A stretch of 62,893 nucleotides of DNA, filler included, from Reclinomonas americana ATCC 50394 (Eukaryota): assembly GCA_048213135.1 (NCBI GenBank). It is 9 parts of 3 records of this genome, joined end to end, with 100 filler letters (N's around TTAATTAATTAA, not from the genome) between each part and the next. Parts side by side here need not be neighbours in the genome. Positions count along the whole stretch, not along the records: positions 1 to 13,166 come from PS015302.1; 8 more parts are not named here. One strand, given 5' to 3'. Under the pieces are notes generated by a model. The model ran no database searches. It had not been told where the DNA came from and saw only the letters and a list, made by a program, of their open reading frames with translations. Shown one piece after another: positions 1-58,800 of this stretch (positions are counted from its first letter, which is position 1; each line of letters opens with the position of its first letter). The translations under genes and the position numbers were made by a program.

Positions 1-6
1 CTTTTT

Positions 7-1325
7 GTGTTAATCCTTGCCGCTGCGGTTTGTCAGGTTCATGCGTACGCCAAGCGCCTGAAGGAGCTCTCTGAAGCGCAAGCCAAATACGATGAGTGTG
101 TGGCAGCGGCGAGTGACGCAGCTGCACTGGACGCCGACATTTTTGCCTCCGGATCGGCCCACAGCTCGCAGCTCGAGGCTCGCGAGGATGTCGATGTTGA
201 TGTGCTGCAAGACGAGCGACAGCTGCTGGCTTTCGAGGCTGCTGGGGAGTGCCTGGAGAGAGCAGACCGCGTGCGTGTCTTGTGTGGCTCAGTGCGCGAC
301 GACTCCTTGCAGCGCACACGCAACAAAACCATTGCGGACCAGTGCAGCGACCTGGGCGCACGGTGTCATCAACTGGTTGCCGAGGCGTGCACTACGATCG
401 ACAAAGCACGTGCCAGCATTCGTACGGCGCGTGAACAACAGAGCAAGCAACTGGCGGAGAGGCAAGAGGAGCGACAGCAACTGTTGCAGCAACTGCGCCT
501 GAACTCGGTGGCACTGAACGAGCTGCAGACGTTGGCCGACCAGATTGATCGGACGGACGCCAGCAACGAACGAGTGCTTGAGTCACTGCGATGTCGGGCG
601 AATGCACTGGAGCACATGGTCAACGAGTCAGTCAGCTGGTTTGGTGACGAAGCAGTCCAGTGCCGGCAGCGCATCACACGCGAAATGGACGAGTTCTGGC
701 GCGAACAGGAAGCAGCGAGTCTCATCAGCATGCTCACCACGGCGGCCGTCAAGACAGCCGAAGACGAGATCGACACCAACGTACTGCGCTACATTTCCGA
801 CATGAAGGAGGTCGACCAGAAGCGCAAGCAGCGAGGCATCCGCGATCTCTGCCGTCGCCGTTCGGAGCTCATTCGCGATCAGGAACACGAGACGCAGCTG
901 CTGAAACGAGCGCAGGACTCGGCTCGTACCTGCCGTGACTGGACATCGCGATTGGTCAAGTTTGCCGGACGGTGGATGGGTGCCGACGAGACCGAGTTCG
1001 GCCAGGTGCTCGGGCGCAGGATGCAAGCGCTGGTCATTGAGCACATCCAGGGATCTCCAGACAGCGGGACCATTGAAGCTCGTTGCGTACTCGCTGCGTG
1101 GGGACAGGCTTCAGATGACACTCACGCATGTGCGTGGTGTACAGTGGGATTGCCGTCCAAGTTGCCGGATGCTGGAGAAGATGGCACCGACGGCATCAGT
1201 GATTCACGCTCTTCGACAGTGTTCATGCTGTCCGAGCGTGGTGAATCGACGATGATGCAGTCGTCGCTGCAGTCAGCCTCCAGCCTCAGCTACAGTGTCA
1301 ACAGCAGCAGCCTCGCCATGCAAGT
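7..1325 (+). CDS. Uncharacterised coiled-coil protein, partial (long exon running into an N-gap)
   Basis: About 430 uninterrupted codons rich in E/Q/R/A/L heptad-like helices (e.g. REQQSKQLAERQEERQQLLQQLRL) with a Ser-rich end. Probable acceptor tgtcag near 36. No family recognised. Confidence 0.55.
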
Positions 1326-1794
1326 NNNNNNNNNNNNNNNNNNNNNNNNNNNNNNNNNNNNNNNNNNNNNNNNNNNNNNNNNNNNNNNNNNNNNNNNNNN
1401 NNNNNNNNNNNNNNNNNNNNNNNNNNNNNNNNNNNNNNNNNNNNNNNNNNNNNNNNNNNNNNNNNNNNNNNNNNNNNNNNNNNNNNNNNNNNNNNNNNNN
1501 NNNNNNNNNNNNNNNNNNNNNNNNNNNNNNNNNNNNNNNNNNNNNNNNNNNNNNNNNNNNNNNNNNNNNNNNNNNNNNNNNNNNNNNNNNNNNNNNNNNN
1601 NNNNNNNNNNNNNNNNNNNNNNNNNNNNNNNNNNNNNNNNNNNNNNNNNNNNNNNNNNNNNNNNNNNNNNNNNNNNNNNNNNNNNNNNNNNNNNNNNNNN
1701 NNNNNNNNNNNNNNNNNNNNNNNNNNNNNNNNNNNNNNNNNNNNNNNNNNNNNNNNNNNNNNNNNNNNNNNNNNNNNNNNNNNNNNNNNNNNNN

Positions 1795-4700
1795 GAGCGC
1801 GAAGCTTGTCCAAATTCCATTCGGCTTCCGAACGCGCCATGTCTGGTCCGAAACGTCCGGCAAACATGCGCTTGGCGACTTTGCAGGCGGTGCGACCGAC
1901 AATGCTGCGCACTTTCTCTCGCGTCCAGTTGCCTACGCCAGAGAGCACGCTGGTGGTAGAACAGGCAATGCTGTGCAACAACGCCGTGTCAGCTGCAGCC
2001 GGAAAGCAGACAGGACACGACACTAACGCAACATATCCACTTGGTGCATCTGCTCCGCCCGCAGCATGTCGCTCACCGACAGCGTCCACGAAGCGGAGGG
2101 CACATCGATCTTGTTGGCCACCACCGTATCGCACACCATCTGATAACCGTTTCTTCTGAATCCCTCAATCATGGCCTTTTGGTGCCACTCCGACACGTCC
2201 TGCATTGCACAATGAGGTTTGGGCCGCCGTCGCATGCAGTACGTGCTTGACCTAAAAAATCACCATAAACGATTTTCGATCGGCGACATCGTAGAGGAGC
2301 AAGAAGCCGTGCGCCTGTCGAAAGTACGAGCCGACAATGTGCATTGAACTGTCGCTCCCTGCATTCAACATAATAACAACATGTGGGTGATGAGAGTGCG
2401 CGAGCGGAGTGCAAAGGCGCACACACCTGGGGTATCGAGCAGCTGTCCACGGAAACCAAACGCGATACAGTCAGCAAAAAAATAGTGCGGTATAACAATA
2501 TCGATTGTAGTGCACACCCAGATTTCGTACACATGCCCGCTGTCCACGCGCATATATAACCTGTGCAACTCGGCTGCGACAACCGAGTGCTCATGTCAGC
2601 GAATTCACACACGCACGCGCACACACGCACGCACTACGCAACGGCCAATCGTAATGGTCTGTTGATCGCCAGCAACGCCACTGGCAGGAGCAAAGCACTC
2701 GCAAAAGGTACTCTTGCCAACTGCACTCAAAACACAACAGTAAGCCGATAACATCGCGTCGACAGGCAAGGATGACTGAAATTCCGAACCACCACGCGAG
2801 CCGAGCACCAGCAACTTGATGGTGCAGTGCGGCGACGCGGTGCCCCACTCTGGTTGCAGTTCAGTCTGCGTCACGCGATAGATACACACTCCAGTCAGTG
2901 TACACGTGCTGTGTGGCGCATCACTACGACTGCCATCGTACCGAGTATTCGGCAATCGGATACGCAGCGCGTTCTTTCGGCCGTGCAAACAATCGCGGTC
3001 CACCTGTGCGACGCCGTGATGAGCGACAAAAGCAAGTGGAGGAATGTGATGCAGGCAGTCGATTACAACGCAACGACCGTGCTTCTCGCGGTGGCGATCG
3101 GTGAGTACCACGGTCGCGCTGTGCAGGCGTGAATCCGCTTCACTCGCCGACTCCACGTCGCGCACATCGTCTTCGAAAAAGTTAATGTTGCGCAATCGCA
3201 TGGGACCAATCGGCTGTACACCAATATTCGGCAGTGAGTCAACACCACAGAGTCGTGTGTGCACTGTGACTAGGCGGCGCACATTCTGACCGCCACCAAG
3301 TAGGAATGACTTGGTTGAAATCAAGTCCCGATAGCGTTCAATGACCGCGTCATCCTCGGCTGTGCGTTCACGTCGTGAGCGAGCCACTGGCAAGCACATT
3401 AAAATCCACCAACCAAAGCGACGCACCTCGAGGGTTCTTGTCGAGCCAGTCCAAGGTATCTGCGAGTTTCTCCTGAAGCTGCTGGCGGTCGAGTAGTTTG
3501 TTTTTGCGCGTCAACTCTGCACCAAGCACAACGCTGTCAGCGTCGACACCAAGAAACAACGTGCACCACCACCACCAGCGGCAGCAGCAGTGCGCAACGA
3601 TGCTCGAGAAGCGACTGCAAGCAGCTGACGGTGTCCAGCAGCAGAGCGTGCGAGTCGGCGAGTTCCAGATACTTGCTCGAGTGGATGCGTGCGAGTCGCC
3701 GCTCGGCCTTGCTCTTCTCCGAACCCGTGGTCACCTCCAGCTCGCCACCCTCCACTTGCCAGTTGATATCGGAAGGAAGCGACATGTCAGCCACCTGCGC
3801 AGACATGTTCAGCGGAGACGTCACAGAGAGTGAGAGATGATGGTATGAACAATAAAGAACACGCAACATCGTCTCGTCCGGGCTCCGGTACCATCAGGCG
3901 CATGTCACTTGGATCGGCACCCACCATGAGTCGCAGCTTGAACGAGGCCGGCGGTCTCGAATCTGGACTCTTCCACTCCACCGAGCACCAGATAACGGGG
4001 TACACGGTCTCGCAGAGTGTCACCGGCTTGTCGTTGCGCAGACGCCTCCATGTGTGCTCATTGATACCTGCGTGCCGCGAGAGAAAGTGAGGGTGCCTGG
4101 ACTGGTGAAAATTAGTGGGCAACACTCGGAGCGAACCGCCGCGATGTTCGAGCACCACAAAGTTGAGTTTGCCGGGTTTCGGGCCGTGTGGAATGATGAC
4201 ATCGAGGAATTCGTCGGTCGGCTGGTGAGCATCCAGCAGGTACGCCTCCTGCTTGTCACCTGCCTTCCTGGCAACCGGCACGCCAAAAATCTGTGTGCGC
4301 AACGTGCCGGCCGTGGGTGCGGTGAGACACAGAGAGAGACAGAGGTCGCGCTGACGCTGGTCACGCACCTTGAACTTGCGATCGTCACTTTCGACCACCT
4401 GCGCCACTGTGTACGCATGCGAGAGCGCATCATCAAACTCGAACGACGCTCCCGGGTGACGTCCACTCAGTTTCGCTGCCAGAATGGCCGCCCCAATAGC
4501 CACTGCATCAGCCGGCTGCGGGACAAAGTGTGTTGTGTGCGCGAATGAGATTACACCTTGCGTCGACAACTCTGTGTGGACGTGTACACCAACCTCCTTC
4601 AGCACCGAGATGTTCTCGTGGAAGAAGCACCGATCGAGAAGAATGTTGAGCAGGTGGGGAATGTGGAACGCTCCGCCGCCAAGAATGACACAGTTGATGT

Positions 4701-6381
4701 CGCGTGGAGTTTTGCCAGCCGCACGCAGTGCATCGTGCACCGGTGTCAAGCAGCGACTGCATGGAGAGAGTGTGAGGCGCACTACCAGCATATGATTGTA
4801 AATGTTACACACAGCAGCACCTGTAAAGCGGAGCCGTCAAATCGTTGAACTGATCCCTCGTAATGGTCACCTCCAGCGACATGCCGTCGTACAGGTCGTT
4901 GATCGACACCGACACCGACACATCTGTCGACAGTGCGCTCTTGGTCTCGGCAGCATGGTGCAACAGGCGCACCATGGCATCGGCATGATTCCGAATGTCG
5001 AATTCGTGCTGCTTGCGAAACTCCTCGCAAAAGAACCTGTGCGCGTCGGGCGGGTTGAGAGATGAGGGGTTGAATGGCCATGCTATGCACTGCATGAGTT
5101 GAGCGAAACTGCACGAGACAGTGATCGAAATCAAAGCCACCACACTTGTCGGCACCGGCCGTTGACAGTACGCGCACCCCAACGGGGGAGAACTCCACAA
5201 TCGACACGTCGAGGAATGCGGCACCAATGTTGAAAACAAGACCAACACGGTATTCGTTTGCGTGATCCCAATAGTGAGCGATTGCCGACAGCGTCGACTC
5301 AGCCACCTGCGTGTATTGTCTGTGAGCAGGCCACGTGCACACAAGGGCTCCGTGCCCAACTGGACAACTGTTGCACTCACCAATGTGACACTGTGGAATC
5401 CGGCAAGCATGGCGGCGTCGGAGAGCGCACGTCGCTGTAGTGCCGAGAACACGACGGGTACGCTGAGAACAGTGTGCCGAACTTGCTCGCCGGCCGCCCG
5501 ACTTGCCGCCTCGCGTGCCTGCTCCAGGACCAGTGCCGTTACTGGGTGCAGTGAGAGGGGAAGAAAGGGAGAGAGAGAGAGGGAGACAATGTGTAAATGA
5601 AAGCGATTGTCGACTGCGAGACAAGTGCCGCGGATCACCTTCCTCGAACGCCACGGGGATCTGTCCGCCGGCCGTCTTCACCTTGGCCAGCGGCTTGAAG
5701 TACTTGTTTTGAAAGATCTCGTACACCCAGCGATCCTGCCGCTTCTCCTCAGTCAGCGTCGGCAACAATGGATCGTCTGCAGGTCGCCGTGAGGAAATCT
5801 TCAAACCCAACACACACACGCAGAGAGACGGGCACCCAACGAAAGCTGCGCCCGAGGAACATCTTGAAATCGTACAGTGTGTCGGCAGCATGCCGTGCAT
5901 GCCGCATGCGACTGAGGTAGCCCAACACGCGCGCTTGCTGACCAATGCCCGTAAACGTGATTTGCGTGCTCATCTCCACCGCCTGCGTCACAAGCGCATG
6001 ACGAACGTGCCCAAGAGACTACCAGTCACACGCACACACACGCAAGAACGCAACAGTGGTGTCGGGCACCAGGGGCTTATCAGGCGCCAAAGGATCCATG
6101 ATCAGCGTCGGTCGCACCATTGCCGCACTCGCCGCACCTCGACCACCTCCCTCATGTGCGCCAGTCGTCGTCCGCCGCACGTGATCCTTCTTCAGCTCAC
6201 CCACCCAAGGCAGCACGCGCGGCACCGGGCAGTCTGTGGTCTCTGGAGGTGTATCCACCAGTGCCACTCGCGTGTACGCCGATCCAAAGTCAATGCCACA
6301 CATAACAGGCGCAGCTGCGATGCCCGATGGACCTACTCCTTGTCCTCCTCCTCCACTGCCACTGCCACTGGCACGTCTCAT
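1795..6381 (-). CDS. Hsp70-like / Rab-like GTPase fusion protein, paralog 1 (multi-exon; 3' end lost in gap)
   Basis: Spliced translation: GIDFGSAYTRVA (Hsp70 phosphate-1), DTLYDFKMFLGRSF, VLSVPVVFSALQRRALSDAA, AESTLSAIAHY, VFNIGAAFLDVSIV, CGGFDFD, EEFRKQH, ITRDQFNDL, VILGGGAFHIP, DAVAIGAAILAA, lid DTLDWLDKNP. Then KLLVLGSRG|VGKS (G1), TITIG (G2), LLDTPG (G3), SYFRQAHGFLLLYDV, VVANKID (G4), IACST (G5). Confidence 0.85.
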
Positions 6382-6477
6382 GATTTTCGCGCCACACGAT
6401 GATCGGATATCACAGTGCCCGTTGGTCCGGCGGGTGGTGGATTTGTGCGAAACTGGATTTTCTCATTCCTTACGTAA

Positions 6478-8618
6478 ATGCCGCGACAAAAAGCTGACTC
6501 TTCCGGTGATGCCCCCAAGAAGCCCGGTGGTCCGTTCATTCAGTTCCTGCAGGAGGCGCGGCGCGGGCATATTCCAGTTACGTGAAAAGAGCTTCTCGCA
6601 AAGCACTTCGGAAATGCGGCTGTGACAGGTTGGATCCTGATGGTTTTTCTGCTTTTTTCTCGTCGTCTGTGCACTCGGTGGATGTAGGCTCTTGCGGGAG
6701 TGGGTGGAGGTGATCTGGCCGTGCGCGCTGGCGAGGTGTGGCGCAGTATGACGGACGAAGACAGAGAGGTGCGTGTGAGTGTGTGTGTAGACAGCGCAGA
6801 GTGTCTCTCACTCACCATCGCCTTGATGGTGAAGCCGTACCTGGCCATGGTCAGAGAGGCGACTGAGCGCTACCACGAGTACATGGTGAGCTTGGGCGCG
6901 GCGGCAGCGGAAGGCAGCCACAGACCAGCCCGATCGAGACGATCACACGTTTCCAGACGAGGTGCAGATTCACCATTGCTTTCGTCGTCGTCGTTGTCGT
7001 CCTCGGCATCCATGTCGTCGTCCACCACGCCGCTGTTGGATCTGGCCTTGTCGCGTGTGCCACCACCACCAAAGGTGAGAGAGTGATTACGCATGCGCAC
7101 CTCCTCTCCACACTGCAATCGCCGCTGCATATGGTGTGTGGTGTCCGGATGAAAAGAATCGTTGAAATCCTTTTCGCAGCCGCAGCCACTGACGGCCGCC
7201 GAGAGGTCAAGCGCGAGGTCTCCGACAGCAGCACGTGGCAAGCCGTCGGTGAGCGTGACGACACCGCCGCCCGGGGCTACAGAGTGATGAATGTGTGTTC
7301 GATATTCAGGATCACTCACCACCCACTGCACTCGTGCAGATGTTTGTGGGATCGGCGGTGTCGAGTGCTGCTGTGTCTGAGGTGACGCATCCATCGCCCT
7401 CCAGTGTATTCTCTTCGCCGACGCCGTCTCCACCGCCGCCGATGCTGCAAGCAGTGCCGAGACCAACAACAACCCTCTTGCAAATGCCACACAGATTGTC
7501 GACGACAACAACGCCAGAGGTGGTGCTTATTGGTGGTCTCTCGCATATTTTGGCAAGGGAATCAGTTGATACTCAAGTTGTCTCCGCGCAGTTGATGGAA
7601 CAAGGCGAGACCACGGCACGCAGAGGGGAGGTGGATTATGTTTTTTTTTGCAATTTGGTCGCGATCACTGTCGTTGTCTCACTCCACACAATTGAACCAC
7701 AAATAGGCAAGAGGAGCCATGGAGGTGCGCGCAGTCTCCCCAGCTGCAGCTGAGCGAGGGCAATCGCACTCGCTGTCAGCAGGGTCGTTCACAAAAGACG
7801 TGCGTTGTGTGTTTCTTGTCTTCGTCGTGTTGTTGTGCGATTGCGATTGACATCTGTGGTGGCGTGTCTCTCTCTGTGTACAGTGGTACAGTGTGGTGCG
7901 ACAGAATCTGGTGCGCGACAACCGGCGGTTTCTGGCCGAGTTGCAGCCGCTCGTGTACCTGCCACAGTCGAGTGCAACGGCCGGTCTCGTGCAAGTCTAC
8001 ATCATGTTTATGATTTGCAAGCGACTGCTGCAAGATGTCGACGGCACCCGGCTGCCGCCACCGACACCGGCAGTGGCACAGCTGTGGTGCGAGCACTCGG
8101 GGCATATTAACAGCTACACGGCGTTCTGCAACGCCCTCGCAGGGCAGACAATTGCCGTGCCGCATGCAACTCGGGTTGAAGTGGCGCTGTCGATGATGAG
8201 TGTTCCCGGGCCCGTCGAGAAGACCGTGACCGCGCAGCGGCTTCACGCGTTCAACTTGCTGCTTGCCACCGAGTTTGACACATCGTACGCCGAGACTGTG
8301 GCTACTGTTGGTACCGGTCGCACTCAGCCAGGTGCGTCGGCGAGCACCACCACCACCACCACCACCACCACCACGGCGGCGACGGTGAAGCGTGTGGCCA
8401 TTGTCGTCACGGCGGACGCACGAACACTGAACCTCAAGGTGAAACCGCTGTCGCTGATTCGGCAGTTGCTAAGCAAGCTGGCGGCACACTTGCATGTTCC
8501 AGAAAACGTGCTGCAGTTGCAACGACCCGACGGTGTGGTCCTGCAGCCAAGTGCGACGGTGACCGACTGTGGAATCGTAGACGGCGACCAACTGCAATGC
8601 GTCAGGCTATCGCTGTGA
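6478..8618 (+). CDS. HMG-box protein, probably continuing through an S/P/T-rich linker into a GRDP/DUF1399-like segment and a C-terminal ubiquitin-like domain (may be two genes)
   Basis: ATG 6478 MPRQKADSSGDAPKKPGGPFIQFLQEARR ... LAVRAGEVWRSMTDEDRE|PYLAMVREATERY is an HMG-box pattern. The last exon has LPPPTPAVAQLWCEHSGHINSYTAFC and a beta-grasp-like end (TLNLKVKP...LQPSATVTDCGIVDGDQLQC) stopping at 8618. Confidence 0.6.
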
Positions 8619-8739
8619 CCAATTCCATCCTTCTTTTTTTTTTTAGCCTCTCGTATTCTCTCCTCTCTGTTTCTCAATCCCGTGGGGTGCTCTCCCCTCC
8701 GTACAACCATTATTGCGAATCATGTACATATAACCATGT

Positions 8740-9163
8740 TTAACAAGCGCACTTTTGTGATTGTTGTCCCTCGTCAGTTGGTTGTGTGGCAGGTCTTTCG
8801 AGCGAGATCGTATCCGACCTTTCCGTGTCGGCCACAGACATGAGATCCTGTGTGTGCACACAGGTTGTGAGCATGTGGAGCACATTCGGCACTGTGGGAC
8901 GAAGAAAACACGCACCCTAAATCCATTGTCGCGCCGTTGTTGCAGTTTCTCGCTCGCCCATTCCGCCTCCGACTGCGCCATTCCGGGACCAAAGCAATGC
9001 GCAAACATGCGCTGCACAACAGTCTCGACGGTGCGACCGACAATGCTGCGCAGCTTATGCCGCGTCCAGTTGGGTCGCGTGTTGAACACTGCATCGGCAC
9101 TGCACGAGATGCTGTGCTCGAACTCGCCGTCATCAGAAGCACGTGACACACGGTGATGAACGC

Positions 9164-9252
<89 letters not shown>

Positions 9253-12200
9253 ACGTANNNNNNNNNNNNNNNNNNNNNNNNNNNNNNNNNNNNNNNNNNN
9301 NNNNNNNNNNNNNNNNNNNNNNNNNNNNNNNNNNNNNNNNNNNNNNNNNNNNNNNNNNNNNNNNNNNNNNNNNNNNNNNNNNNNNNNNNNNNNNNNNNNN
9401 NNNNNNNNNNNNNNNNNNNNNNNNNNNNNNNNNNNNNNNNNNNNNNNNNNNNNNNNNNNNNNNNNNNNNNNNNNNNNNNNNNNNNNNNNNNNNNNNNNNN
9501 NNNNNNNNNNNNNNNNNNNNNNNNNNNNNNNNNNNNNNNNNNNNNNNNNNNNNNNNNNNNNNNNNNNNNNNNNNNNNNNNNNNNNNNNNNNNNNNNNNNN
9601 NNNNNNNNNNNNNNNNNNNNNNNNNNNNNNNNNNNNNNNNNNNNNNNNNNNNNNNNNNNNNNNNNNNNNNNNNNNNNNNNNNNNNNNNNNNNNNNNNNNN
9701 NNNNNNNNNNNNNNNNNNNNNNNNNNNNNNNNNNNNNNNNNNNNNNNNNNNNNNNNNNNNNNNNNNNNNNNNNNNNNNNNNNNNNNNNNNNNNNNNNNNN
9801 NNNNNNNNNNNNNNNNNNNNNNNNNNNNNNNNNNNNNNNNNNNNNNNNNNNNNNNNNNNNNNNNNNNNNNNNNNNNNNNNNNNNNNNNNNNNNNNNNNNN
9901 NNNNNNNNNNNNNNNNNNNNNNNNNNNNNNNNNNNNNNNNNNNNNNNNNNNNNNNNNNNNNNNNNNNNNNNNNNNNNNNNNNNNNNNNNNNNNNNNNNNN
10001 NNNNNNNNNNNNNNNNNNNNNNNNNNNNNNNNNNNNNNNNNNNNNNNNNNNNNNNNNNNNNNNNNNNNNNNNNNNNNNNNNNNNNNAGTCGATATTGTGC
10101 ATCTTCTCAAAGCGAAGCAGGTCCGGGATGGGCAGTGCCGCCGGCTGATCCACCTTGTTAACCACCACCGTGTCAAACGCAAGTTCGTAGCCATTGCGTC
10201 GGTACCCTTCGATCATGGCTTGTCGGTGCCACGCAGTCAAGTCCTACAGCACAGAATCACCACCATTATGAGTGCACAGTCATTGAAGCGTGTACGCGCG
10301 CGAGTGTTTGTTTGACGAGCCTCAAGTGATTTCGGGTCGCTGGCGTCGCACATGAGAATGAAGCCATGCGCTCGACGGAAATACGAGCCGAGGATCCGCA
10401 TGGAGGCATCGCCACCGGGAGTGTCCATGAGCTGCAGGGGGATGCACGACCGCCTGTGAGGCCGACTGTCACACCAACCGACAACTAGAAAGACGCACCC
10501 AGATCTCGTACACGCGGCCCTCGAATGTGCGCATGTACAGTCGATGCAACTCGGCTGTACACATGAATCAGGTGCTGGTCGCAACAAAGTGCGGTGAAGA
10601 AATGCGACGTCGACGCAACGGCCAATAGTGATCAGATCATGCTCATCCGAGAGACCCGGCACTGGAGCAAAGCAGTCGCAGAAAAGTGTCTTTCCAACTG
10701 TTCATCATCATCAACAACAACAACAACAACAACAGTCAAAACCACGACGATGGCACTTGTCATGAGGGAATCAAATACCATTCTTGGAGCCGAGCACGAG
10801 CAGTTTCACCACACACTGCACCGCAGTGGCACCCCACTCGGGTAATATGGTCAGCTGCGCATCGGTGCGTCAGGGACACAGTACACGGCAGCACCGACAG
10901 TGGGCGACCTACGCAACCGAGTACTCTGCCGTCGGGTACTTGACCCGATCGTGCGGGCGAGCAAAGAGAGCAAAGCCGGCACCAAAAACGCGCTCCCTGT
11001 ACGCCAGTGGATCCATGGCTTTCCTGACGTTGCGACCCGAACCATGACGTCGTCGGTTCCGGCCGCTGTGATAGTGATGATCGGAGTGCTCCTTTGTTCG
11101 CAGTCGCAGCGGTGGTGACTGCAACAACAAAGTCGTGATGGGGCAGTCCACGGCACACTCGCAGCAGACCCGACAAAACAGCCAGACGTACCACATCTAC
11201 TTGCCCGAGGGCGACAAACTTGAGTCGCAACAGATGTGATAATCTCTCCATGACGTCGGCGTCGGGGGCTGCCGATTGGAGTCAGAATACAACGAGGAGC
11301 GGAAATCGAGCATTCACACGAACCTTGTGGCATCGCCTCCAGCCACTCCAACGTGTCTTGCACTGCACGAGACAGTGCTGAACGCACTTCGTGGTGCGAG
11401 TGTCGCAGCAGCTCTGACAAAATCGAATAGTATGTCGAGAAGTGAGAAGTGGACACACAGCAATCAAGTGAAGTGAGTGCGTGTACGAACGAGTGAAGAG
11501 CGCGGACTCTATGGACGAGATGCAGTTGAGCAGGCGAAGTTGCGGAGCAGAAAAGCGCGCGGCGGACTCTTGTGCGCGACGGATTTGGAGACGGCGTTCA
11601 CGAATCTTGCCCATCTTGGCGGGATGAAGGAATATCACACGGCCCTCGGCCACCACTGTGTCCTTCTCGTCGCCCTCGAATTTCTGGGATCCAAACACAG
11701 AGAGCAATGACTTGTCAGCACACAAATACGCGATCACTGCCAGCAAACCCCGGGCTTGTGACTTGCCGCTGAAAACAGCATATCGATGTCGCTCGGATCG
11801 TCTCCGACACGCAGGCGGATGCGATATGACTGCGACTCAGGCTCCGCCTCCGTCTCGGTGGTCAGGCGGCCGTGGATAACGGGATACACGGTTGATGAGA
11901 GCGACACAGGCTTGCCCCGAGAAATCAGTCGCCATGTTTCCTCTCGAATGCCTACCATCACGTGTGATGAGTGTGAGTGATTCATCCTTCTAAACATGGA
12001 AACAGTGCGCACTACCTCCGCGGTGCTCAAGGACGGTGATGAACGGAGACCAGTTTGGCTGGGCGGGCGATACTCGCAGATCCACTTCTCCGCCGGCAGC
12101 ACGGTGGCCATCGAGCGGATAGCCATGTTGTGCGTCCTCCTCTTGTGGCACACCAAATATCTGCAACATTGTTTCTCATTCAGTGCCGTCACTAACACCC

Positions 12201-13142
12201 CCGTCTTCTTCCTGCTTTTCTGACGCACCTCGTATTCGGTGGGCCCCACTCGCCGAGCCAATGTGTACCCGTGCGACAGAGCATCAGTGAACTGGAAATC
12301 GTCGGCTGGCGACAGCTGCTCGCTGAACTTGGCGCCCAAGATTGCGGCGCCCATCGCCACATCGTCGTCATCCTGCCGAGGCACACGATGAGAAGCAGGT
12401 GGGACAAAGAAAGACTTGACGAACGATTCGCACGCACCGCTTTCATGACTTGAATGTGCGAGTGGAAGAAGCAGCGCTCCAGCAACACGTCGTGCACTCG
12501 CGGAATATGCGACGCACCACCGCCCAGCACAACACACTCGATATCGTTGGGGGTGAGACCAGCATTGCGCAGCGCCTCGTGCACCGGTGTGAGACACGGA
12601 CTGTGAGTGTCGACAGCGGTGAGCGCGAGAATGTGACATGAAAGGGCAGTCTCACATGCTCGCCTGAGCAGGTGCGCTGTGACCTCATTCATCTTGGCTC
12701 GCGTCAGCCTGTAGTTCAAGTCGAGGCCGTCGTACAGATCGGCCAGTCGCACAATGTCCACATCGTCCGACGACAGGATCTTCTTCGCCTGCTCTGCTCG
12801 CTGCATGAGACGGATGCGGGCCACAGCATCGGTTTTCATCGAACGCCGATGCGCCGTTTGGAACTCCACACTCAACAGCCTGTGTGCGCACTGATGAGAT
12901 GCACGTCAAAAGCATGCGTACATACGCTCACCACAGCCGCGTAACTCGGCAATGGCGCTGTCGAATGCACGGCCACCACAGTCCTCGTTGCCGGCCGTGC
13001 CCAACACTCGCATGCCTTGTCTCGTCATTTCCACGATCGACACACTGCAAAATCGCGCTCCGAGCACATAGACCAGCACCGTGCGCTGCTTGTGACCGTG
13101 ATCCCAGTAGTGTGTGACGGCAGCAAGTGTGCTTTCCGTGAC
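8740..13142 (-). CDS. Hsp70-like / Rab-like GTPase fusion protein, paralog 2 (5' part lost at contig end; ends in CXC prenylation motif)
   Basis: VTESTLAAVTHY, VLVYVLGARFCSVSIV, CGGRAFD, AEQAKKILS, LTRAKMNE, VVLGGGASHIP, VAMGAAILGA, lid DTLEWLEAMP. Then KLLVLGSKN|VGKT, LITIG, LMDTPGG, SYFRRAHGFILMCD, VVVNKVD, ISCSA. The last exon 8740-8847 (after GT-AG intron 8848-8915) reads DLMSVADTERSDTISLERPATQPTDEGQQSQKCAC*. Confidence 0.85.
9165..9250. repeat. (CA)n microsatellite inside an intron, adjacent to a gap
   Basis: Direct inspection: long pure CA run. Confidence 0.95.
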
Positions 13143-13210
13143 CTGCAACGATGGTGGTGCATCAACNNNNNNNNNNNNNNNNNNNNNNNNNNNNNNNNNN
13201 NNNNNNNNNN

Positions 13211-13222
13211 TTAATTAATTAA
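13211..13222. other. Artificial scaffold spacer TTAATTAATTAA flanked by N runs (also at 28620, 34037, 36622, 40258, 42000, 52736, 58765)
   Basis: Identical 12-mer giving stops in all six frames, always centred in an approximately 100-nt N block. Confidence 0.95.
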
Positions 13223-13266
13223 NNNNNNNNNNNNNNNNNNNNNNNNNNNNNNNNNNNNNNNNNNNN

Positions 13267-13798: not shown

Positions 13799-16470
13799 TT
13801 AGAACGGGCGGTCGGTGAGAGACGGCACGGGGCGGGCCGCGAAGAAATCAATCAGCGTGTTGACGTCGCGCACGATGCGGTCCTTGGTGAAGCCAAAGTG
13901 TGCCATCACATCCTGCGATGAATGGTGAGCACAATGTCTGCATGACATGCAGTGGCTGTGATAATGGCGTACCTTCAACGGAGCGCTGGCACCAAAGGTG
14001 CGCATGCAGTGCTGCGCATGTGAGTAGCGGTCCCAGCCTGTGCAAAGAATCGTGAGTCAGTCGGGAGTGATGCAGGAGGGGAAGGAGGATCTCCTGGGCG
14101 CGCACCAACAGCGCTGTGGGCCTCGACTGCCAGCACCGGCACGCCAGCGGGGAACACGGTCTGCTTGTACTCCAGCGGCTGCTCCTCGAAGATCTCCCAC
14201 GACGGCATGGAGACCACGCGCACGTTCTGCTCAGGGGTGGAGAAAATGAGTCACGCATAATCAACAGCAGCGAGTGTGCACGTGGCGGTGTACGCACCCG
14301 GCCGGCCTCCTTGGCAGCGTCCACGCACAGCGACACCTCACTGCCCGACGCCACCAAAATCGCGTGCGGCTCACCGGCAAAGCTGTCGGTCAGAGCATAC
14401 GCACCGCGGAAGACGCCGTCAATCGACGAGCCCTGCAGCTGCGGCAGAGCCTGGCGCGACAGTGCCAGCACACATGGGCCATGGCGGCGCTCAATGGCCA
14501 CCGCATACGCACCCGAGGTCTCGTTGCCGTCGGCCGGGCGGATGTAGTACATGCCCGGCATGGCGCGCAGCATGGTCGGCACCTCAATCGGCTGATGTGT
14601 CGGTCCGTCCTCGCCGAGGCCAATCGAGTCGTGTGTGGCCACGTACACGACACCGTGGTGTGCGAGAGCCGAAAGACGGACAGCGCCGGCGGCGTAACCA
14701 ATAAAGTTGAGGAACGTGCCGCAGTACGGGATGAATCCACCGTACGCCGCCAGGGCGTTGCTGATGGCCGCCATGCCGTGCTCGCGCACGCCAAAGCGCA
14801 GGTAGCGACCCTCGTAGTGGTCCTGCGCACCACACAGGAGAGGTTTAGCAGAAGCACAGGGAAGTAAAGTGCAGCGGACATCGAAAACACCTTCTGGAAG
14901 TCGTGGCCACCCTTGATCTCGGTCAGGTTGGATGGCGTCAGATCGGCCGAGCCACCAATCAGTGTCGGCAGGTGTCGCGCAATGGCGTTGAGGGTGAGCT
15001 CCGAGGTCTGACGAGTGGCCAGCGCCTTGTCGCCCGGATGGTACTTGGGCAACGCATCGCGCCACGCAGTGCCGAGCTCGCTGCGAGAGAATGCTGCATA
15101 GTCGCCAGCCTGGTCCGGATGCTCGGCCAGGAAACGATCGACGGCCGCATGCCACTCGGCCTCCTTGGCCGCACCACGCTCCGCCGCCTCGTGGAACGCC
15201 GCACGCACGCTGTCGGGCACTACAAACGACTGCGCCGGGTCGAAGCCAAAGGCGGTCTTCAGGGCCGCCAAGTTGGCGGGTCCAAGCGGCGATCCGTGCA
15301 CTTTCTCCGTGCCGGCCAACACCGAGCCGAAGCCAATGGTGGTTCTGCGTGGAGAAGAATGAGAGAGAGAGAGAGAGAGCGCGCGCGAGAGAGAGAGAGG
15401 CGACGCAACTGCAGACGAATGATCGACGGGCGGTCGGTGACGGCGCGCGCCTCGTTGATGGCACGTCGAATGCCGTCGAGATCCGTGTCGCCGTTCTCCA
15501 CGTACTGCACATGCCAGCCGGCGGAGTGGAAGCGACCGTCCGTGTCCTCCGTGAACGCCAACTCCGTGCTGCCGTCAATGGAGATGTGGTTGTCGTCGTA
15601 GATGAGAACCAGGCGGCCGAGACCGAGGTGACCGGCCAGCGAGATGGCCTCTTGCGAGATGCCCTCCATCAGGCATCCATCGCCGCAAAACACATACACG
15701 TAGTGATCGGCGACCTCCGGAGCGAAGCGCTTGGCCAGATGGTGCTGCGCAATCGCAAAGCCCACCGCGTTGGCCAACCCCTGTCCCAGCGGACCCGTGG
15801 TGACCTCCACTCCCGGCGTGTGGCCGCTCTCCGGATGGCCCGGCGTCCTACGCGACACGATGATGAGGAGACGAGAGGCAAACGAGGGAAACAGCGCCCT
15901 GTCTCTTGGTGTACGCAACAGAGAGCCGAGCGAGCGGAAGCGACGCAGCTGGTCCAGCGACATATCCTCGACTCCCATCAGATGCAACATCGTGTACAGC
16001 AACTGCACAATCACAACTCACTCAGCACCCCTCGAGACACAGCAGCAGAGGAGACTCTCACGTAACTGCACAGCCGTGACCATTGGAGAGCACGAAACGA
16101 TCGCGGGCGTACTGCAAAAGAAGAGCACAATGTGAGCAATCAAATCACAGATGCAAAGATGCGTTTTGTGTGAGCAATGTGAAGGGTGGTAAAGCAGCGT
16201 ACCCACGAGGTGTTGCGCGGGTTGAAGTTGATGAACTCCTTCCACAAGACGTAGGCCACAGGCGCCATGCCCAGCGGCATGCCTATTCACACGCACACAA
16301 AGAAGACAACACACACACAAAGACGAGGGAATCAGCTTCGTGTCTCTCTCTCCTCTGTGCGTGTACATCATGTGTCACATGCCTGGGTGACCAGAGTTGC
16401 CGGCTTGCACTGCGTCGGCGGCAAGCACGCGGATGGTGTTGATGGCCAGTGTCTCTGCCTCGGAAGCCAT
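13799..16470 (-). CDS. TKT: Transketolase
   Basis: [54 protein letters not shown] (ThDP motif), [55 protein letters not shown]; stop at 13799. Confidence 0.97.
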
Positions 16471-28494: not shown

Positions 28495-28689
28495 GCAGTC
28501 TCTCCAACACCGCGCAAGCAAACAATGAACGTGTACGTATTCAATGGACGTCGCCAGGTGAAAAAGTCCTGTCCTNNNNNNNNNNNNNNNNNNNNNNNNN
28601 NNNNNNNNNNNNNNNNNNNTTAATTAATTAANNNNNNNNNNNNNNNNNNNNNNNNNNNNNNNNNNNNNNNNNNNNAACATACACGGCCT

Positions 28690-33974: not shown

Positions 33975-34092
33975 GCACGTGCATTCCTGCTANNNNNNNN
34001 NNNNNNNNNNNNNNNNNNNNNNNNNNNNNNNNNNNNTTAATTAATTAANNNNNNNNNNNNNNNNNNNNNNNNNNNNNNNNNNNNNNNNNNNN

Positions 34093-36576: not shown

Positions 36577-36936
36577 TNNNNNNNNNNNNNNNNNNNNNNN
36601 NNNNNNNNNNNNNNNNNNNNNTTAATTAATTAANNNNNNNNNNNNNNNNNNNNNNNNNNNNNNNNNNNNNNNNNNNNGACGGGCGACATTGTGCTGCCGA
36701 GTGTGGCTCCTCGCCTGATCACCACGCCCGCCATTGCGCCCCGTGCACGTCGCCCGACCTCCACGCGCTCCGATGTTGCGCTCGTCTTCCTCTCTTCCTC
36801 TCTCGCTCGTTGCATTCCTGTTGCTCACAAAACGCGCACCCAGCACTCGTCACACTCGCAACACTCGCGACACTCGCAAGGATCGCCACACAAGCACAAC
36901 ACGCCCAGTCCAACAGGCCCGCTGAAGCGCCAGTAC

Positions 36937-40212: not shown

Positions 40213-41660
40213 TNNNNNNNNNNNNNNNNNNNNNNNNNNNNNNNNNNNNNNNNNNNNTTAATTAATTAANNNNNNNNNNNNNNNNNNNNNNNNNNNNNNN
40301 NNNNNNNNNNNNNTGTGTGAGAGAGTAAGAGACGCAACTGTGCAGCAACTCGGCGGCCGAGGAGGCTGACATGATGGTTGCTGCTCTGCGTGTCGTGTCG
40401 TGTGTCGTGCGAAGTTGGGACGCTGCGGACCGATTTTTGCGAACAAACAGCAACGTTTTATCGATCAGCACATAAGCGCATGGAACGCTAGCTTGATGTA
40501 GGTGTGCTGAATGCACAATGCCGATCGATAGCATTACAGCAGCTATCGCGACGTTTTTCGACCGATATCGATATTTCGATCGCTTGTGTTTTTTTCGTTG
40601 CTGCAGCTTGCAGCTGGCCATGGATATCGCCCGAACTCCGACAGGCTGTAGTGCAGCTGCATGTCGATCACCGTCTTGGGTGACCACCAGGAAAAACAAC
40701 AACTTTACTAATCCAAACGAGAAACATCGACTTTGACATGTCAAATGTCGACAATTCTGCAAAAGAAGCCACGGCTCATGTGGCAAGCTCACGGATAGCA
40801 CGCTGCTCTCCACTAGTACTTACAGCAGTCTTTGTGCTCATGCTCTGGAACCTGCAGGCTGCGTTGCTATCGATTTCGCCGCCGAATTGGCTTCATCGCC
40901 AGTATCCGGTATTTCGAATTGTTTTTCTTAGCAATCGTCTTCCTTCCTACCAGCTGCGACGAAGGCCTGCCCCCGTTATACCACATGCACCCACATGTAC
41001 TCTTGCGCCGAATCCGCTCCAAAGAGAAGCACAGCGCAGCGCCATTCGAATTGCAACTTCGAATTCGCGATCGCGATCGGTCTCCTCCGAGTGCTGCTCT
41101 CGCACTCCCCTCACCACACCGCTACTTCTACGTGCACAGGCTCGCATCCACACACACGCAGTTCGCCATTAACGCAATCGTACAAAGCACCTCAATTTCG
41201 TTGAAGTACAAGTGAACGGATTGGTGAACAAGGTGCGTGCAACGCGAGAGACGCTCTCTCACTCACACTCGCACCTGTGAGTCAGTCTGTGACAGAAGAA
41301 GAGAGCGTGTGCACACACACACACGTCTCTCTGTGTGTATGCGTGTGTGTGTGTCATATTCGTGTGCAACATGTCACTTCTCTCACTCGCGCTCTCACCA
41401 CTTACAATGTGCACTCCTCTGTATGCCTCATGCTCTCTCTCATTACTCTCTCACACTGTGTGCATGCGATCGCTTTTGTCATGCAATTCGTTAATCGCTT
41501 TCACTCTCTGTGTGTGTGTGTGTGTTTCTTCTCTCACTGACTCTCTTTCTTGTGTGTTGGTGCTCAACGCGCAGAGGGAGTAAGAGAGAAAGGCAAGAGG
41601 CAAATCGACTTGCGCGCTTTTTTCTCAACTTTTCATCAATCATGCAAGCTGCGGTGAGTT

Positions 41661-41895: not shown

Positions 41896-42056
41896 CATGC
41901 ACACACACGCACACATGCAGGGAGACTGGAGCAACACGCAAGCATTCACTTGGGGNNNNNNNNNNNNNNNNNNNNNNNNNNNNNNNNNNNNNNNNNNNNT
42001 TAATTAATTAANNNNNNNNNNNNNNNNNNNNNNNNNNNNNNNNNNNNNNNNNNNNA

Positions 42057-52500: not shown

Positions 52501-52807
52501 AGCAGTCAGTAAAGCACAGTGACTGTCAACTCTCTCCTCTCTGCCTCTCCTGCGTGTCACTCGCATGCAACTTGTTTTCCTCTCTCTCTCTCTCTCGTGC
52601 ATGCAGCTTCTCTCTCTCTCTCTTTAGAATCAGCAATGCATGCAGCTTGTCTCTTTCCCTCCTCTTCTCCTCCTCCTCCTCCTCCTCCTCCNNNNNNNNN
52701 NNNNNNNNNNNNNNNNNNNNNNNNNNNNNNNNNNNTTAATTAATTAANNNNNNNNNNNNNNNNNNNNNNNNNNNNNNNNNNNNNNNNNNNNGCACACACT
52801 CACTCAC

Positions 52808-55800: not shown

Positions 55801-58800
55801 TTGCAATCGCCGCCGCTCCACTCGTGCCGCCTTGGCGGCGGCGTCTTCAATCTGTGCGACGGCAACCACAGGGGCCACCACTTCATCCTCTTCCATTGCA
55901 CCACCATCGTCGTCGTCGTCGCCGACGCGAGTGCTGTATGCGTGTGACAGCAGTGAAAATCAATCATCTTCCCGCACATGCACTCAACATTCACAGACAC
56001 ACAAACCGTTTCAGCGAATGAACGCGCGGCTGCGGTGCTCCACCAGAGCCCGACGCACGACCGAAATCCTCCATGTCTTTCAGAGCCGCCTCTGTGACAG
56101 CCGGAATAAGTCGAGTGAGACTCTCACTTGCCAGCAAGAAAGAGCGCAACTGGCTGCAACGGCGGCGCCAAACATGTCGCCGATCTTGCGCTGCTGGTGC
56201 GCCGTGGACGCTGCCTTGAGACGCGCCAGCAACCACGCTGCGTACACATAATACACACGAGTGAGTGGCAGACAATGCACGTGGAGGGAATAGTGCGCCA
56301 AAGACTCACGAGGGTGTGGCACACGAGGCACGGGATTGCTGACACGTTGGTAGGCCGCCGGAATGGTGATGATCTTCTGAATGGTTGAGCTGAGGCGCCA
56401 CACGTAGTAGTCCCAGTCAACCAGATCGCGCAACAAGGCGGTTTGGTCGTCGACAGGCAAACCGACCTGCACAACTTTTCAGTCGGCACAGGTCCCACTT
56501 GGCCAGGGAAGACACGCCCTGCTCACCTCCTTTGTCCACTGCGCCAGACGCACACGCTGCTCGGCCTCGGAGGCGTGGAAGATTTGCGTGGGAATGGCAC
56601 GCTCCGTCACAGGTCGCGTGGGCGGGTACTTGGAAATGATGAACGAGCAATTGAGTCCCTGTGTGTTCTCCGGCTCGGTACCGAGAAAGTCGGCCAGACG
56701 CCGCGCAGTGGTGATGGCAGAGCTCTTGCGCCCGTCATACGCCGACAGATTCTACACGTGGCATGAGTGGTAGGAATGTGAGAAACTCAAACACACCGCC
56801 AAACACGCACCTTGCTCATGTTGGAGCTCTCTGTGATGAGATCCAGCACGGCATCTGGCGGCATTTCAGTGCCCTTGGAGAACAGCACGTCGAGCCAGCG
56901 GTTCGCCACGGCCCCGACGGCGGCGTAACACTCGTCGAGGGTGTAGCCCTCCAGGAAGCTCTTGAAGACCTCGGTTTGGAACACCTGTGTTGTCGTTGTT
57001 GGTGCGAGGTGAGAGCGTGTTACTTGGCACACAATGCCCCCTTGTTTCCTCGTACCTTGATGAGCTGCAACTCGCCACGTCGCTTGATCTCGAAACCCTT
57101 GAGTTCGGCAATCCCGCCGTCGTCGTTGAATACGGCGTAGCGCTTCTTGATGTTCTTCCCCTCCTCCTTGGAGGCCGGCAACACCATGGCTCGGTACGGA
57201 CCGTCGACTTCGAAGAAGATGGAGCACTCGCTCTTGATGGTGTACGCGCCGCGCTCCTTGTCCAGATCCTGATACTGGTGATTGGAGAAGAGCCGATTGA
57301 CATCGTGGTTCAGCATGACACCCGGGTAGGAGATGACGTGCGACGGTTTCTTCGGGTTGCGTGACAGGAACTGCGCATCTCGTTGGGTTGGCAACCATGC
57401 AGGCGAATGAGATGCAAGCACAAACACGCGTACCTTGAAGTTTTCCGGGAACGAAGCCGGCAGCACACACCAGATGCCGTCAGTGTCCAGCTCGAGCGGC
57501 TGTCCGATGCGGTCGACCAAGCGACGAGCCATCTTGATGATCTCGGCGCCGGTCAGCGTCACTGTGCGGAGGTTCAGCATGACCATGCAACAAGCGGGTT
57601 TGTTGATGCACGTGCTCACCAATGCCGGCCATTTGCATCGAGTACCAGCGGGCACCCTTGCGCATCACATAGCCGTAGAACGAGTTCAAGATGCACTTGT
57701 GCGCCAGCTGCATCGACTCGTACAGCACAATCATGTTGTTCGCACGCTCGACTCCGAGCGGATCACCAGCCGATTTGGCCGCACCCAACTTGCCTTGCCA
57801 CGTCTGTCATGCACGCATTTCACCTCAGCCTCTTTCTCCCCTTCCACCACAAATGAGCGCACACTCTCCGTGCTCACCTTTAGCAGAATCTTGTACTCGT
57901 AGCGACGATCGCGGAAGGCGCGCACTGTGTCCACGTAGAACGGGTTCTCGCGTTGGCACACAATGTCCTGGGTGGCGGACACACAAGGAATCAGTTGTAA
58001 CAAATCCAACAACAATCATCTACACACACATACACACCGTGCGCTCTTCCGTTTCCGTTTCGTGCACGCGCTTGTACACCTTGCGTGTGTAGTCCGACAG
58101 GCGCTTCTTCAGCAGGCGTGACCGGTGCTCCTCCGGCAGCTCGTGGAAGCTGACGATCTTGGTTTCGCCAGTCGTCATGTCCTTCTCGGGGAACCGCTCA
58201 CTCTGCAGTTGCAACTTGATGTGCTCGTACTCGGGGCGCGTCGACTTGAAGTACTCGCCACGCCACGCCCACTTCATGCGCCGCTGACTTCGCTCGTTGT
58301 GAACACACAGATGAGTTGTCATAAGCCGCGCGCCCGAGGCGATGCAAAACAAACCAGTGAGTGTCGGGTCGATTGTGCACGCAGGCGGCACACGTTGTCT
58401 CGTCGACCATGGACGGCGGCTGGAGACGATTGGTGAGGATAATGTTGGGGTACATGGCACCGACATCCAAGTGATAGATCAGCGGCCGCTCATCACGTCG
58501 TGGCTGGTCGCGCAGCGCCTGCAGCGCCTCCACAATCTCGTCACGCACTTGCTCGTAGTTGGTGACATCGTCGAAATCGAGGCCACCCTCGACCGTGATG
58601 GCGAACCGCAGCGCGTCGTCCAGATTGTCAATGAGCTGCGACGCAGCAATCAGCACACACACACGCAACAAAGTGGAGTTCAAAAACACGTGCAAGTCGA
58701 CTGCACCTCTTGGTAGGCGGNNNNNNNNNNNNNNNNNNNNNNNNNNNNNNNNNNNNNNNNNNNNTTAATTAATTAANNNNNNNNNNNNNNNNNNNNNNNN

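Follow-up and report, generated by a model that had tools for sequence, protein, structure and literature searches.

A predicted fusion of an Hsp70-like domain and a Rab-like GTPase, present in two tandem copies in Reclinomonas americana

What is known of proteins that join the Hsp70 system to a small GTPase? Rab GTPases normally recruit their effectors in trans, and Hsp70s are normally brought to membranes by J-proteins. The two systems meet in RJL/DNAJC27 (RBJ), a Rab-like GTPase with a C-terminal J domain; the large Rabs Rab44, Rab45 and Rab46 carry EF-hands and a coiled coil, and among the Hsp70s, Ssz1 and HSPA14 are atypical, non-hydrolysing members. Here we analyse a locus of Reclinomonas americana ATCC 50394 (assembly GCA_048213135.1), contained in a stretch of 62,893 nucleotides which we refer to as the window, at which the nucleotide-binding domain (NBD) of an Hsp70 and a Rab-like GTPase appear to be encoded in a single chain. 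The first-pass annotation of the window had proposed such a fusion, ending in a prenylation motif, for one copy of this gene, here called paralog 2; a second, tandem copy is called paralog 1.

Like DNAJC27, the predicted protein chains a small GTPase to a part of the Hsp70 system. There, however, the added part is a J-domain co-chaperone at the C-terminal end, whereas here it is the Hsp70 body itself, placed N-terminally, with the prenylation tail retained; in Pfam scans, no DnaJ match was obtained among 25 raw open reading frames (ORFs) or 28 exons of the locus, and the predicted protein closes with a CXC motif 104 residues past G5. With the large Rabs and with TbFRP, the FYVE-GTPase of Euglenozoa (PMC3593210), it shares the succession of a long N-terminal module and a C-terminal small GTPase, but in those proteins the N-terminal module is of another family, and none is known to have an Hsp70 domain. 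A distant thematic parallel is offered by the bacterial GTPase-centric conflict systems, in which HSP70s figure as separate bacterial genes near TRAFAC GTPases of other families, rather than being fused in a eukaryote to a Rab-like GTPase with a lipid tail (PMC7159879).

Our best reading of the locus, to which we assign a probability of roughly 0.7-0.8, is a single fused gene in two tandem, anciently diverged copies, and it is argued mainly from the conserved gene structure. The protein predicted from it would probably span ~1,050-1,100 residues and comprise an Hsp70-type NBD, a middle region of ~270 residues, a linker and a Rab-like GTPase with a Cys-X-Cys end, the linker being, as modelled, ~70 residues long, basic and poorly conserved. 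What we observe directly are the exon chain, the conservation between the copies, the homology of the NBD and the G-box motifs.

All coordinates given here are positions along the whole window, filler included. The window strings together several unplaced scaffolds, with linkers of 44 N, TTAATTAATTAA and 44 N at eight places, and features are therefore not to be read across the joints. Its first scaffold (window 1-13166, GC content ~57-60%), which ends at the first joint (at 13211, within 13167-13266), carries both Hsp70-like/Rab-like copies. The predicted exon chain of paralog 2 occupies 8740..13166 on the minus strand and is 5'-truncated by the scaffold end. The first-pass annotation had placed its exons on the minus strand at 8740-13142, and rightly so: an AG acceptor (13144-13143) directly precedes the first visible exon, which starts at 13142, the stretch of 24 bases from there to the scaffold end at 13166 is the tail of an intron, and the last exon closes with TAA (8742-8740) after KCAC. 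Since the gene runs off the scaffold at 13166, lobe I of the NBD is absent from the model.

From 13142 to 10088, paralog 2 can be read as 15 exons of 2106 nt in total, or 702 codons with zero stops, leading from NBD lobe II through the linker into G1-G4; the 14 introns are 55-81 nt long, with 12 GT and two GC donors, and every acceptor is AG. For the choice of splice sites, all stop-free GT/GC-AG introns joining neighbouring conserved frames were listed, and a selection was made by the local donor pattern (GTGCGT, GTTCGT, GTACGT, GTTGCG), by intron size and by the agreement of both copies. Exons 1-3 (13142-12946, 12879-12664 and 12600-12438) encode NBD lobe II, as assigned by PF00012 and by comparison with the DnaK NBD. 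The open spliced frame continues in exons 4-9 (12372-12229, 12160-12016, 11951-11749, 11683-11491, 11413-11324 and 11268-11192), which together (11192..12372) hold the NBD end and a middle region of ~270 residues, DTLEWLEAMPQ included, that resembles a substrate-binding domain (SBD) and lid in length and position. Exon 10 (10918..11118; 201 nt, phase 0 on both sides) is a linker of 67 residues, basic and rich in His and Arg, with the conserved end LFARP..YP.AEYS. The GTPase motifs follow in the spliced frame of exons 11-13 (10854-10779, 10697-10620 and 10554-10499) and 14-15 (10431-10321 and 10243-10088), which together (10088..10854) hold G1, itself split by an intron, G2, G3, switch II and G4. 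The stretch between lid and GTPase, given as roughly 100 residues in the first-pass annotation, measures 107 from ...EAMPQ to VKLLVLG.

Within the GTPase, between the G4 and G5 exons, the chain is interrupted by an assembly gap of 829 N (9258-10086). The intron adjoining it contains a long (TG)n microsatellite at ~9167-9254, which probably explains why the assembly breaks at this point. Beyond the gap lie two exons of 104 codons: a G5 exon (8916..9122, with an uncertain 5' boundary), which encodes SISCSA and a conserved C-terminal extension with the motif NWTR..RSIVGRT..RMFA..FGP.MA.SEAEW, and the last exon (8740..8847), which encodes ...QKCAC before the stop. They are joined in phase 0 by an intron with a GTGCGT donor at 8915 and a CAG acceptor before 8847. 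That the G4 exon continues into these two exons is taken over from paralog 1, in which G4 and G5 are separated by a few codons and a short intron.

Paralog 1 emerged from a self-comparison of the window as a second tandem copy at ~1300-6400, with its parts in the same order. It has the same architecture (1298..6381, minus strand) and is 5'-complete, its ATG at 6381 sitting 27 codons after an in-frame stop, and it supplies the NBD lobe I, with a GIDFGS-type phosphate-1 motif, that is missing from paralog 2. Up to an N gap near its 3' end (1326-1794), it can be read as 22 exons with 1038 codons, zero stops and 21 GT-AG introns of 35-97 nt: exons 1-6 at 6381-6040, 5982-5841, 5776-5639, 5541-5381, 5306-5110 and 5036-4821; exons 7-12 at 4756-4594, 4515-4369, 4290-4137, 4067-3868, 3794-3599 and 3516-3427; exons 13-18 at 3359-3283, 3213-3075, 3003-2942, 2865-2790, 2720-2643 and 2573-2518; and exons 19-22 at 2442-2427, 2358-2264, 2199-2028 and 1992-1795, all on the minus strand. 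Directly past the gap, a possible end of the protein, ...LAWRGCCC followed by TGA, is found on the same strand at 1298..1322, for which we infer the frame link across the gap. As measured on the first model of paralog 1, the two proteins are 47% identical (345/739 aligned residues). No further copy was detected on the other scaffolds of the window, with 0/33 tblastn matches outside 1-13166.

Three features of the first paralog 1 model were discarded in arriving at this chain. A G3 box read as 'LNAGS' proved to be translated intron, the real G3 being LLDTPG on an exon of 16 nt; a 90-nt G2 exon was dropped for one of 78 nt, matching paralog 2; and the linker, first read as one exon of 59 residues behind an intron of 164 nt, was remodelled as two exons of 139 and 62 nt, because the GC content by codon position of the first model was wrong (0.61/0.73/0.42) and the new sum equals the 201 nt of paralog 2. 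The 16-nt micro-exon (2442-2427), flanked by introns of 75 and 68 nt, encodes exactly LLDTPG; paralog 2 has no intron at this site (16+95 = 111 nt).

Do these chains represent one gene or two? Exon lengths are identical or at most 9 nt apart between the copies along the whole gene, junction included. On the Hsp70 side they pair as 197/197, 216/216, 163/163, 147/144, 154/145, 200/203 and 196/193 nt, and across the junction and the GTPase as 90/90, 77/77, 201/201 (139+62 in paralog 1), 76/76, 78/78, 56/56 and 111/111 nt (16+95 in paralog 1). Both copies also share their succession of intron phases across the junction, namely phase 1 (a split Ala codon), phase 0, phase 0 and phase 1. In both, the 90-nt lid-like exon, DTL(E/D)WL..., ends in phase 1 and passes via the split Ala codon into the 77-nt exon, which in turn ends at a phase-0 donor; as this donor is conserved in position and phase, the 77-nt exon must be internal. 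It is followed by the 201 nt of linker and then by the 76-nt exon with (L/Q)PEWG...KLLVLGS, with no in-frame stop in either copy, and the P-loop itself is interrupted by a phase-1 intron in both. The fusion proposed by the first-pass annotation is thus sustained by the stop-free chain and by junction exon lengths and phases common to both paralogs. The two GC donors, the 829-N gap and the 5' truncation had escaped that annotation.

The chief alternative is that each copy consists of two adjacent genes on the same strand, an Hsp70-like gene and a Rab-like gene with a long N-terminal extension, which were duplicated as a cassette and are falsely bridged by predicted introns. A number of points weigh against our reading, and several of them speak for this one. 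The fusion is read from genomic DNA alone, all exon chains, and with them the bridging introns, being predictions, and, with no orthologue found, the architecture is known from two paralogs of a single scaffold. A duplicated two-gene cassette would give the same order twice as well, and in some protists genes of the same strand follow one another within a few hundred bases and are separated through trans-splicing. The splice sites were of our choosing, and in DNA of 58% GC several alternative open chains exist; the discarded first linker model of paralog 1 was likewise stop-free. Paralog 2 requires two GC donors, and paralog 1 requires a micro-exon of 16 nt and an intron of 35 nt. One in-frame ATG is present in each linker, and the linker and lid-like part are poorly conserved (amino-acid identity 0.29-0.37; ratio of nonsynonymous to synonymous substitution rates 0.70 in the lid-like part). 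At the far end of the chain, profiles of the G4 and G5 exons retrieved only noise from the PDB (BipA, subtilisin etc.), leaving Rab membership to one exon, and whatever we propose for the function is inference.

Several observations at the junction nevertheless oppose two separate genes. Downstream of the lid-like exons there is no stop codon common to both copies: the tails obtained by reading through the donors extend over at least 140 codons, with one exception, a stop 20 codons past the 90-nt exon of paralog 1, which is not present in paralog 2. The 77-nt exon is internal by its conserved donor, and the next exon is open into G1. The two ATGs, in MDPLAY... (paralog 2) and ...PMRLRN... (paralog 1), are at non-homologous positions, the Met of the paralog 1 linker aligning with a Leu in paralog 2, and that of paralog 2 having no Met counterpart in paralog 1; that the conserved LFARP..YP.AEYS and L.PEWG upstream of G1 lie downstream of these ATGs is no more than a chance of position. 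The lid-like exon and the G1 exon are just 470 and 562 nt apart in the two copies, and these intervals contain no AATAAA or ATTAAA in either. At the actual gene ends, the GC content dips to 0.33-0.35 (directly past the stop at 8740, where it reaches 0.33, and upstream of the ATG at 6381), but there is no such dip in the lid-to-G1 intervals, whose lowest values are 0.50 (paralog 2) and 0.42 (paralog 1). By codon position, the GC content of the linker exons (0.68/0.41/0.70 and 0.67/0.52/0.61) is coding-like and agrees with gene-wide values of 0.63-0.66/0.43-0.46/0.67-0.68, the introns being at 0.52-0.55. On this balance, we regard the two-gene interpretation as unlikely, albeit as one to be taken seriously.

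The single fused gene also agrees with the pattern of divergence. Between the paralogs, the proportion of differing synonymous sites (pS) is ~0.7 and thus saturated, arguing for an old duplication, while the proportion of differing nonsynonymous sites (pN) comes to 0.35 for the NBD and 0.26 for the GTPase. In the 20 codons directly upstream of G1 (LFARP..AEYS), pN is 0.28 at a pS of 0.73. As pN is low while synonymous sites are saturated, both halves and the piece between them must be under constraint in both copies.

Two further explanations concern the quality of the copies. Paralog 2 could be a decaying, non-functional duplicate, with paralog 1 alone working. Two of its 14 donors, at 12663-12662 and 10320-10319, are GC, with GT at the matching positions of paralog 1; it is incomplete in the assembly; and its phosphate-2 loop is more degenerate than that of paralog 1 (D194 to V, D201 to S, in DnaK numbering). 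Yet its 702 + 104 codons have remained without stop or frameshift despite saturated synonymous sites, pN is well under pS in both NBD and GTPase, G1-G5 and the CXC tail are intact, and the GC donors keep the remaining local donor pattern (GCTCGT and GCGAGC), making decay very unlikely. Either such donors are usual for this organism, or they reflect a loosened constraint on paralog 2. The assembly might, in turn, have united an Hsp70 gene and a Rab gene in a chimeric scaffold or a collapsed repeat, a possibility raised by the draft state of the assembly, its many N gaps and the unplaced scaffold. However, there is not a single N between the lid-like exon and G1 in either copy, the same junction occurs twice in copies that are just 47% identical in protein, and no other copy or fragment turned up elsewhere in the window in the tblastn comparison; such an artefact is hardly credible.

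By its homology, the N-terminal domain of the fused gene is beyond doubt an Hsp70 NBD of the eukaryotic type. Among the 25 raw stop-to-stop ORFs, five matched HSP70 in Pfam and two matched Ras. PF00012 was matched by 8/28 exons in collinear order, covering profile positions 115-398 in paralog 1 (five exons) and 167-347 in paralog 2. That the first three exons of paralog 2 belong to an Hsp70 was confirmed: they map to profile positions 167-230, 236-306 and 309-347, with E-values of 4.8e-9, 6.3e-7 and 5.5e-6 and scores of 35.4, 28.4 and 25.3 bits (cut-off 20.6), and exons 4-6 of paralog 1 score 33.7, 32.4 and 39.4 bits against the same cut-off. In Smith-Waterman comparisons with the NBD of Escherichia coli DnaK, the spliced NBD of paralog 2 scores 232 versus 31.7 +- 4.5 for 300 shuffles (z = 44), and that of paralog 1 yields z = 61; hhalign aligns the latter with a probability of 99.6% (E 4e-24, 34% identity, 311 columns), its lobe I having long insertions relative to DnaK. 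The closest PDB matches to the NBD, obtained with a single exon, are the eukaryotic HSPA6, Ssb1, Hsc70 and BiP (E 4e-14 to 2e-13).

The residues D8, K70, E171, D194, G197-G198-T199 and D201 of DnaK are catalytic or phosphate-binding. In a three-way alignment, D8 and K70 are found in paralog 1 (the region is missing in paralog 2) and E171 in both copies, as in eukaryotic Hsp70s such as HSPA8/Hsc70, HSPA6, Ssb1 and BiP, to which the NBD is clearly homologous. Set against these proteins, however, the fusion has a degenerate phosphate-2 loop, with D194 changed to N in paralog 1 and V in paralog 2, G197 to A in both, G198 to A and R, T199 to F in both, and D201 retained in paralog 1 and changed to S in paralog 2. 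Given the catalytic role of these residues, little or no ATP hydrolysis is to be expected of the Hsp70-like half. Unlike these Hsp70s, moreover, the fusion has an SBD and lid beyond recognition, and no EEVD or endoplasmic reticulum-retention end, but a linker and a small GTPase instead.

The middle region of ~270 residues that follows the NBD is 43% and 29% identical between the copies in its two parts. The first-pass annotation had seen a divergent SBD and lid here, which we could not recover by Pfam, PDB or DnaK comparison: 0/8 middle-region exons match PF00012 at E <= 1, the paralog 1 ORF spanning it gave three phmmer matches in the PDB, to NBD residues only, and the lid exon gave no SBD or lid match in the PDB but one unrelated match. 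Smith-Waterman comparisons of the SBD-like pieces with the SBD-beta of DnaK and of the lid-like pieces with its lid remained at z <= 0.7 in 4/4 cases over both paralogs, and the ESM Atlas gave no usable match to a middle-region exon. The sole support comes from a weak but collinear hhalign match to DnaK over 41 columns (P 6e-4, probability 28.6%), at an offset of 133 versus 130 residues from the NBD end, in a segment of DnaK that we take to lead from the last part of the beta-sandwich into the lid. From the same anchor, the distance from the NBD end to the lid-like end is 288 residues in the fusion, much as in DnaK (279). By its length and this one match, the middle region might be read as a degenerate SBD and lid.

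Turning to the C-terminal half, the motifs listed for paralog 2 in the first-pass annotation, GSKNVGKT, TIG, DTPG, YFRRAHG, NKVD, SCSA and KCAC before the stop, all lie in the spliced frame. The G boxes of paralogs 2 and 1, respectively, are GSKNVGKT and GSRGVGKS for G1, TIG for G2, DTPG for G3, NKVD and NKID for G4, and SCSA and ACST for G5, and their order and spacing are canonical in the spliced frames of both copies, as in Rab1/Ypt1, Rab3 and Sec4, with which the fusion also shares the Cys-X-Cys end. For the RabF4-like stretch at switch II, Rab1A is the closest match: in the PDB, the switch II exon retrieves Rab1A best (E 0.0062), and 40/44 of its matches at E <= 1 are named Rab, Ypt1 or Sec4, the remaining four being RASEF, an entry titled rabphilin-3A, GH01619p and one unrelated protein. 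In the Pfam check that the first-pass annotation had called for, which we ran on exons and ORFs, HSP70 passed its cut-off, but Ras (PF00071, cut-off 21.6 bits) did so only among the paralog 1 fragments scanned (22.5 bits for the ORF 2255-2470) and fell short in paralog 2 (18.8 bits for the raw ORF and 13.4 for the exon).

Within the Rab family, the catalytic Gln is carried by the canonical motif DTAGQ. In the fusion, this motif reads DTPGG (paralog 2) or DTPGS (paralog 1), so that Gly or Ser takes the place of the Gln, and the residue that corresponds to Ras G12 is Lys or Arg; switch I and other Rab-family motifs are kept only in part. It further differs by an N-terminal extension of ~790 residues and by a conserved extension of ~60 residues after G5, where ordinary Rabs have variable tails; the G5 exon is 56% identical to the paralog 1 exon 1992-1795. 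A C-terminal Cys-X-Cys is the type of motif that is modified by Rab geranylgeranyl transferase, and the double-Cys end of paralog 2, KCAC followed by TAA, probably has its counterpart in paralog 1 in GCCC followed by TGA past the N gap. The GTPase half is thus best described as a divergent Rab-like GTPase, not as a proven Rab.

Searches for relatives of the fusion returned blanks. A word-indexed search among longer proteins with the paralog 1 linker/G1 ORF gave 2568 candidates, 0 of them at E <= 0.001, and one with the G5/extension exon gave nine candidates and no orthologue. HMMER, run over 1.84 billion representatives with a 349-residue paralog 1 ORF covering the NBD end and middle region, including three in-frame introns, gave two matches (E 1e-5 and 8e-5), both of which were rejected, one lacking any Pfam family and the other being a bacterial protein of the IgGFc-binding/PKD/CHU_C kind. 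Of two metagenome scans, one gave 597 pattern matches with 0 confirmed, and the other 192, yielding two loci that were rejected because only 13-18 residues around the pattern match agree, the rest of the proteins being unlike and the GC content 38-39%. These blanks are weak evidence, as a transketolase exon of the same assembly found nothing above 73% identity among 8000 scored proteins, with full-length matches at 70% at most, indicating that neither the proteome nor close relatives are in the collection.

A natural Hsp70-Rab or Hsp70-small-GTPase fusion was not found in the full-text literature either, InterPro and EukProt architecture tables being outside the scope of this search; the lone occurrence of the string 'Hsp70-Rab' reportedly belongs to a zebrafish Rab5c paper (PMC7176290), where we take it for an hsp70-promoter transgene. 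One further source mentions hsp70 domains only in unannotated transcripts (PMC4053983). That the first-pass annotation knew of no described Hsp70-Rab fusion agrees with this literature search and with the homology searches, which returned no relatives of any kind. We would describe the architecture as an apparently new combination of two known families, seen twice in one poorly sampled eukaryote.

The surroundings of the locus are those of a eukaryotic, intron-rich genome, in which conserved genes such as the transketolase gene on the next scaffold are also split into short exons. This gene (13802-16461, minus strand) has several short introns, and its nearest database relatives, fungal-type and environmental, are only ~70% identical. 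A ubiquitin-like domain (Rad60-SLD E 9e-7; ubiquitin E 2e-4) forms the end of a plus-strand ORF at 7851-8618, which lies between the two copies and converges with paralog 2. A plus-strand frame open from 1 to 1325, up to the N gap (441 codons), is rich in Gln, Glu, Leu and Arg, coiled-coil-like by eye, and convergent with the 3' end of paralog 1, which it apparently abuts. The seven further joints of the window lie at 28576-28675, 33993-34092, 36578-36677, 40214-40313, 41956-42055, 52692-52791 and 58721-58820, and Rfam and tRNA scans across the window gave no match.

What might such a protein do? As G1-G5 are intact, we propose that the GTPase binds guanine nucleotide, and as Gly or Ser occupies the position of the catalytic Gln, that it would hydrolyse GTP slowly. 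Geranylgeranylation of the CXC tail would then place the protein on a membrane. With the phosphate-2 loop residues lost, the Hsp70-like module most likely has no ATP-driven chaperone cycle, and a working one is doubtful; instead, it could be an effector in cis, a module for binding or scaffolding that is built into the protein, does not cycle and is placed on the membrane by the Rab-like switch, and the two old paralogs could serve different compartments. The lipid-anchored chaperone/GTPase hybrid of the first-pass annotation would accordingly keep its anchor, as the CXC tail is present and prenylation can be presumed from it, but hardly its chaperone, the phosphate-2 loop being degenerate and the SBD beyond recognition. 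A bolder and rather improbable extension is a self-contained 'chaperone-switch' of a new class, in which a Rab-like domain anchored to the membrane would have its nucleotide state coupled, in the same chain, to the Hsp70-derived module: the Rab domain might gate the binding of clients or co-chaperones at a specific organelle, or the Hsp70-like part might be a built-in escort or, much like a GDP dissociation inhibitor, a cover over the prenylated tail and switch regions, with the paralogs serving two compartments.

The finding is of interest for Rab and Hsp70 specialists and has as yet no bearing on a major open question. The fusion raises the questions of whether the N-terminal half binds nucleotide, J-proteins or exchange factors, whether such binding changes with the GTP state, and where the paralogs are localised. 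As the collections searched hold no relatives of this lineage, the architecture may be commoner in poorly sampled protists than the blanks suggest. If true, the combination of an Hsp70-derived body with a prenylatable Rab-like switch would represent a new way to place or repurpose the Hsp70 fold on a membrane, and it would be a further example of an Hsp70 that has lost its nucleoside triphosphatase activity and yet is retained under selection.

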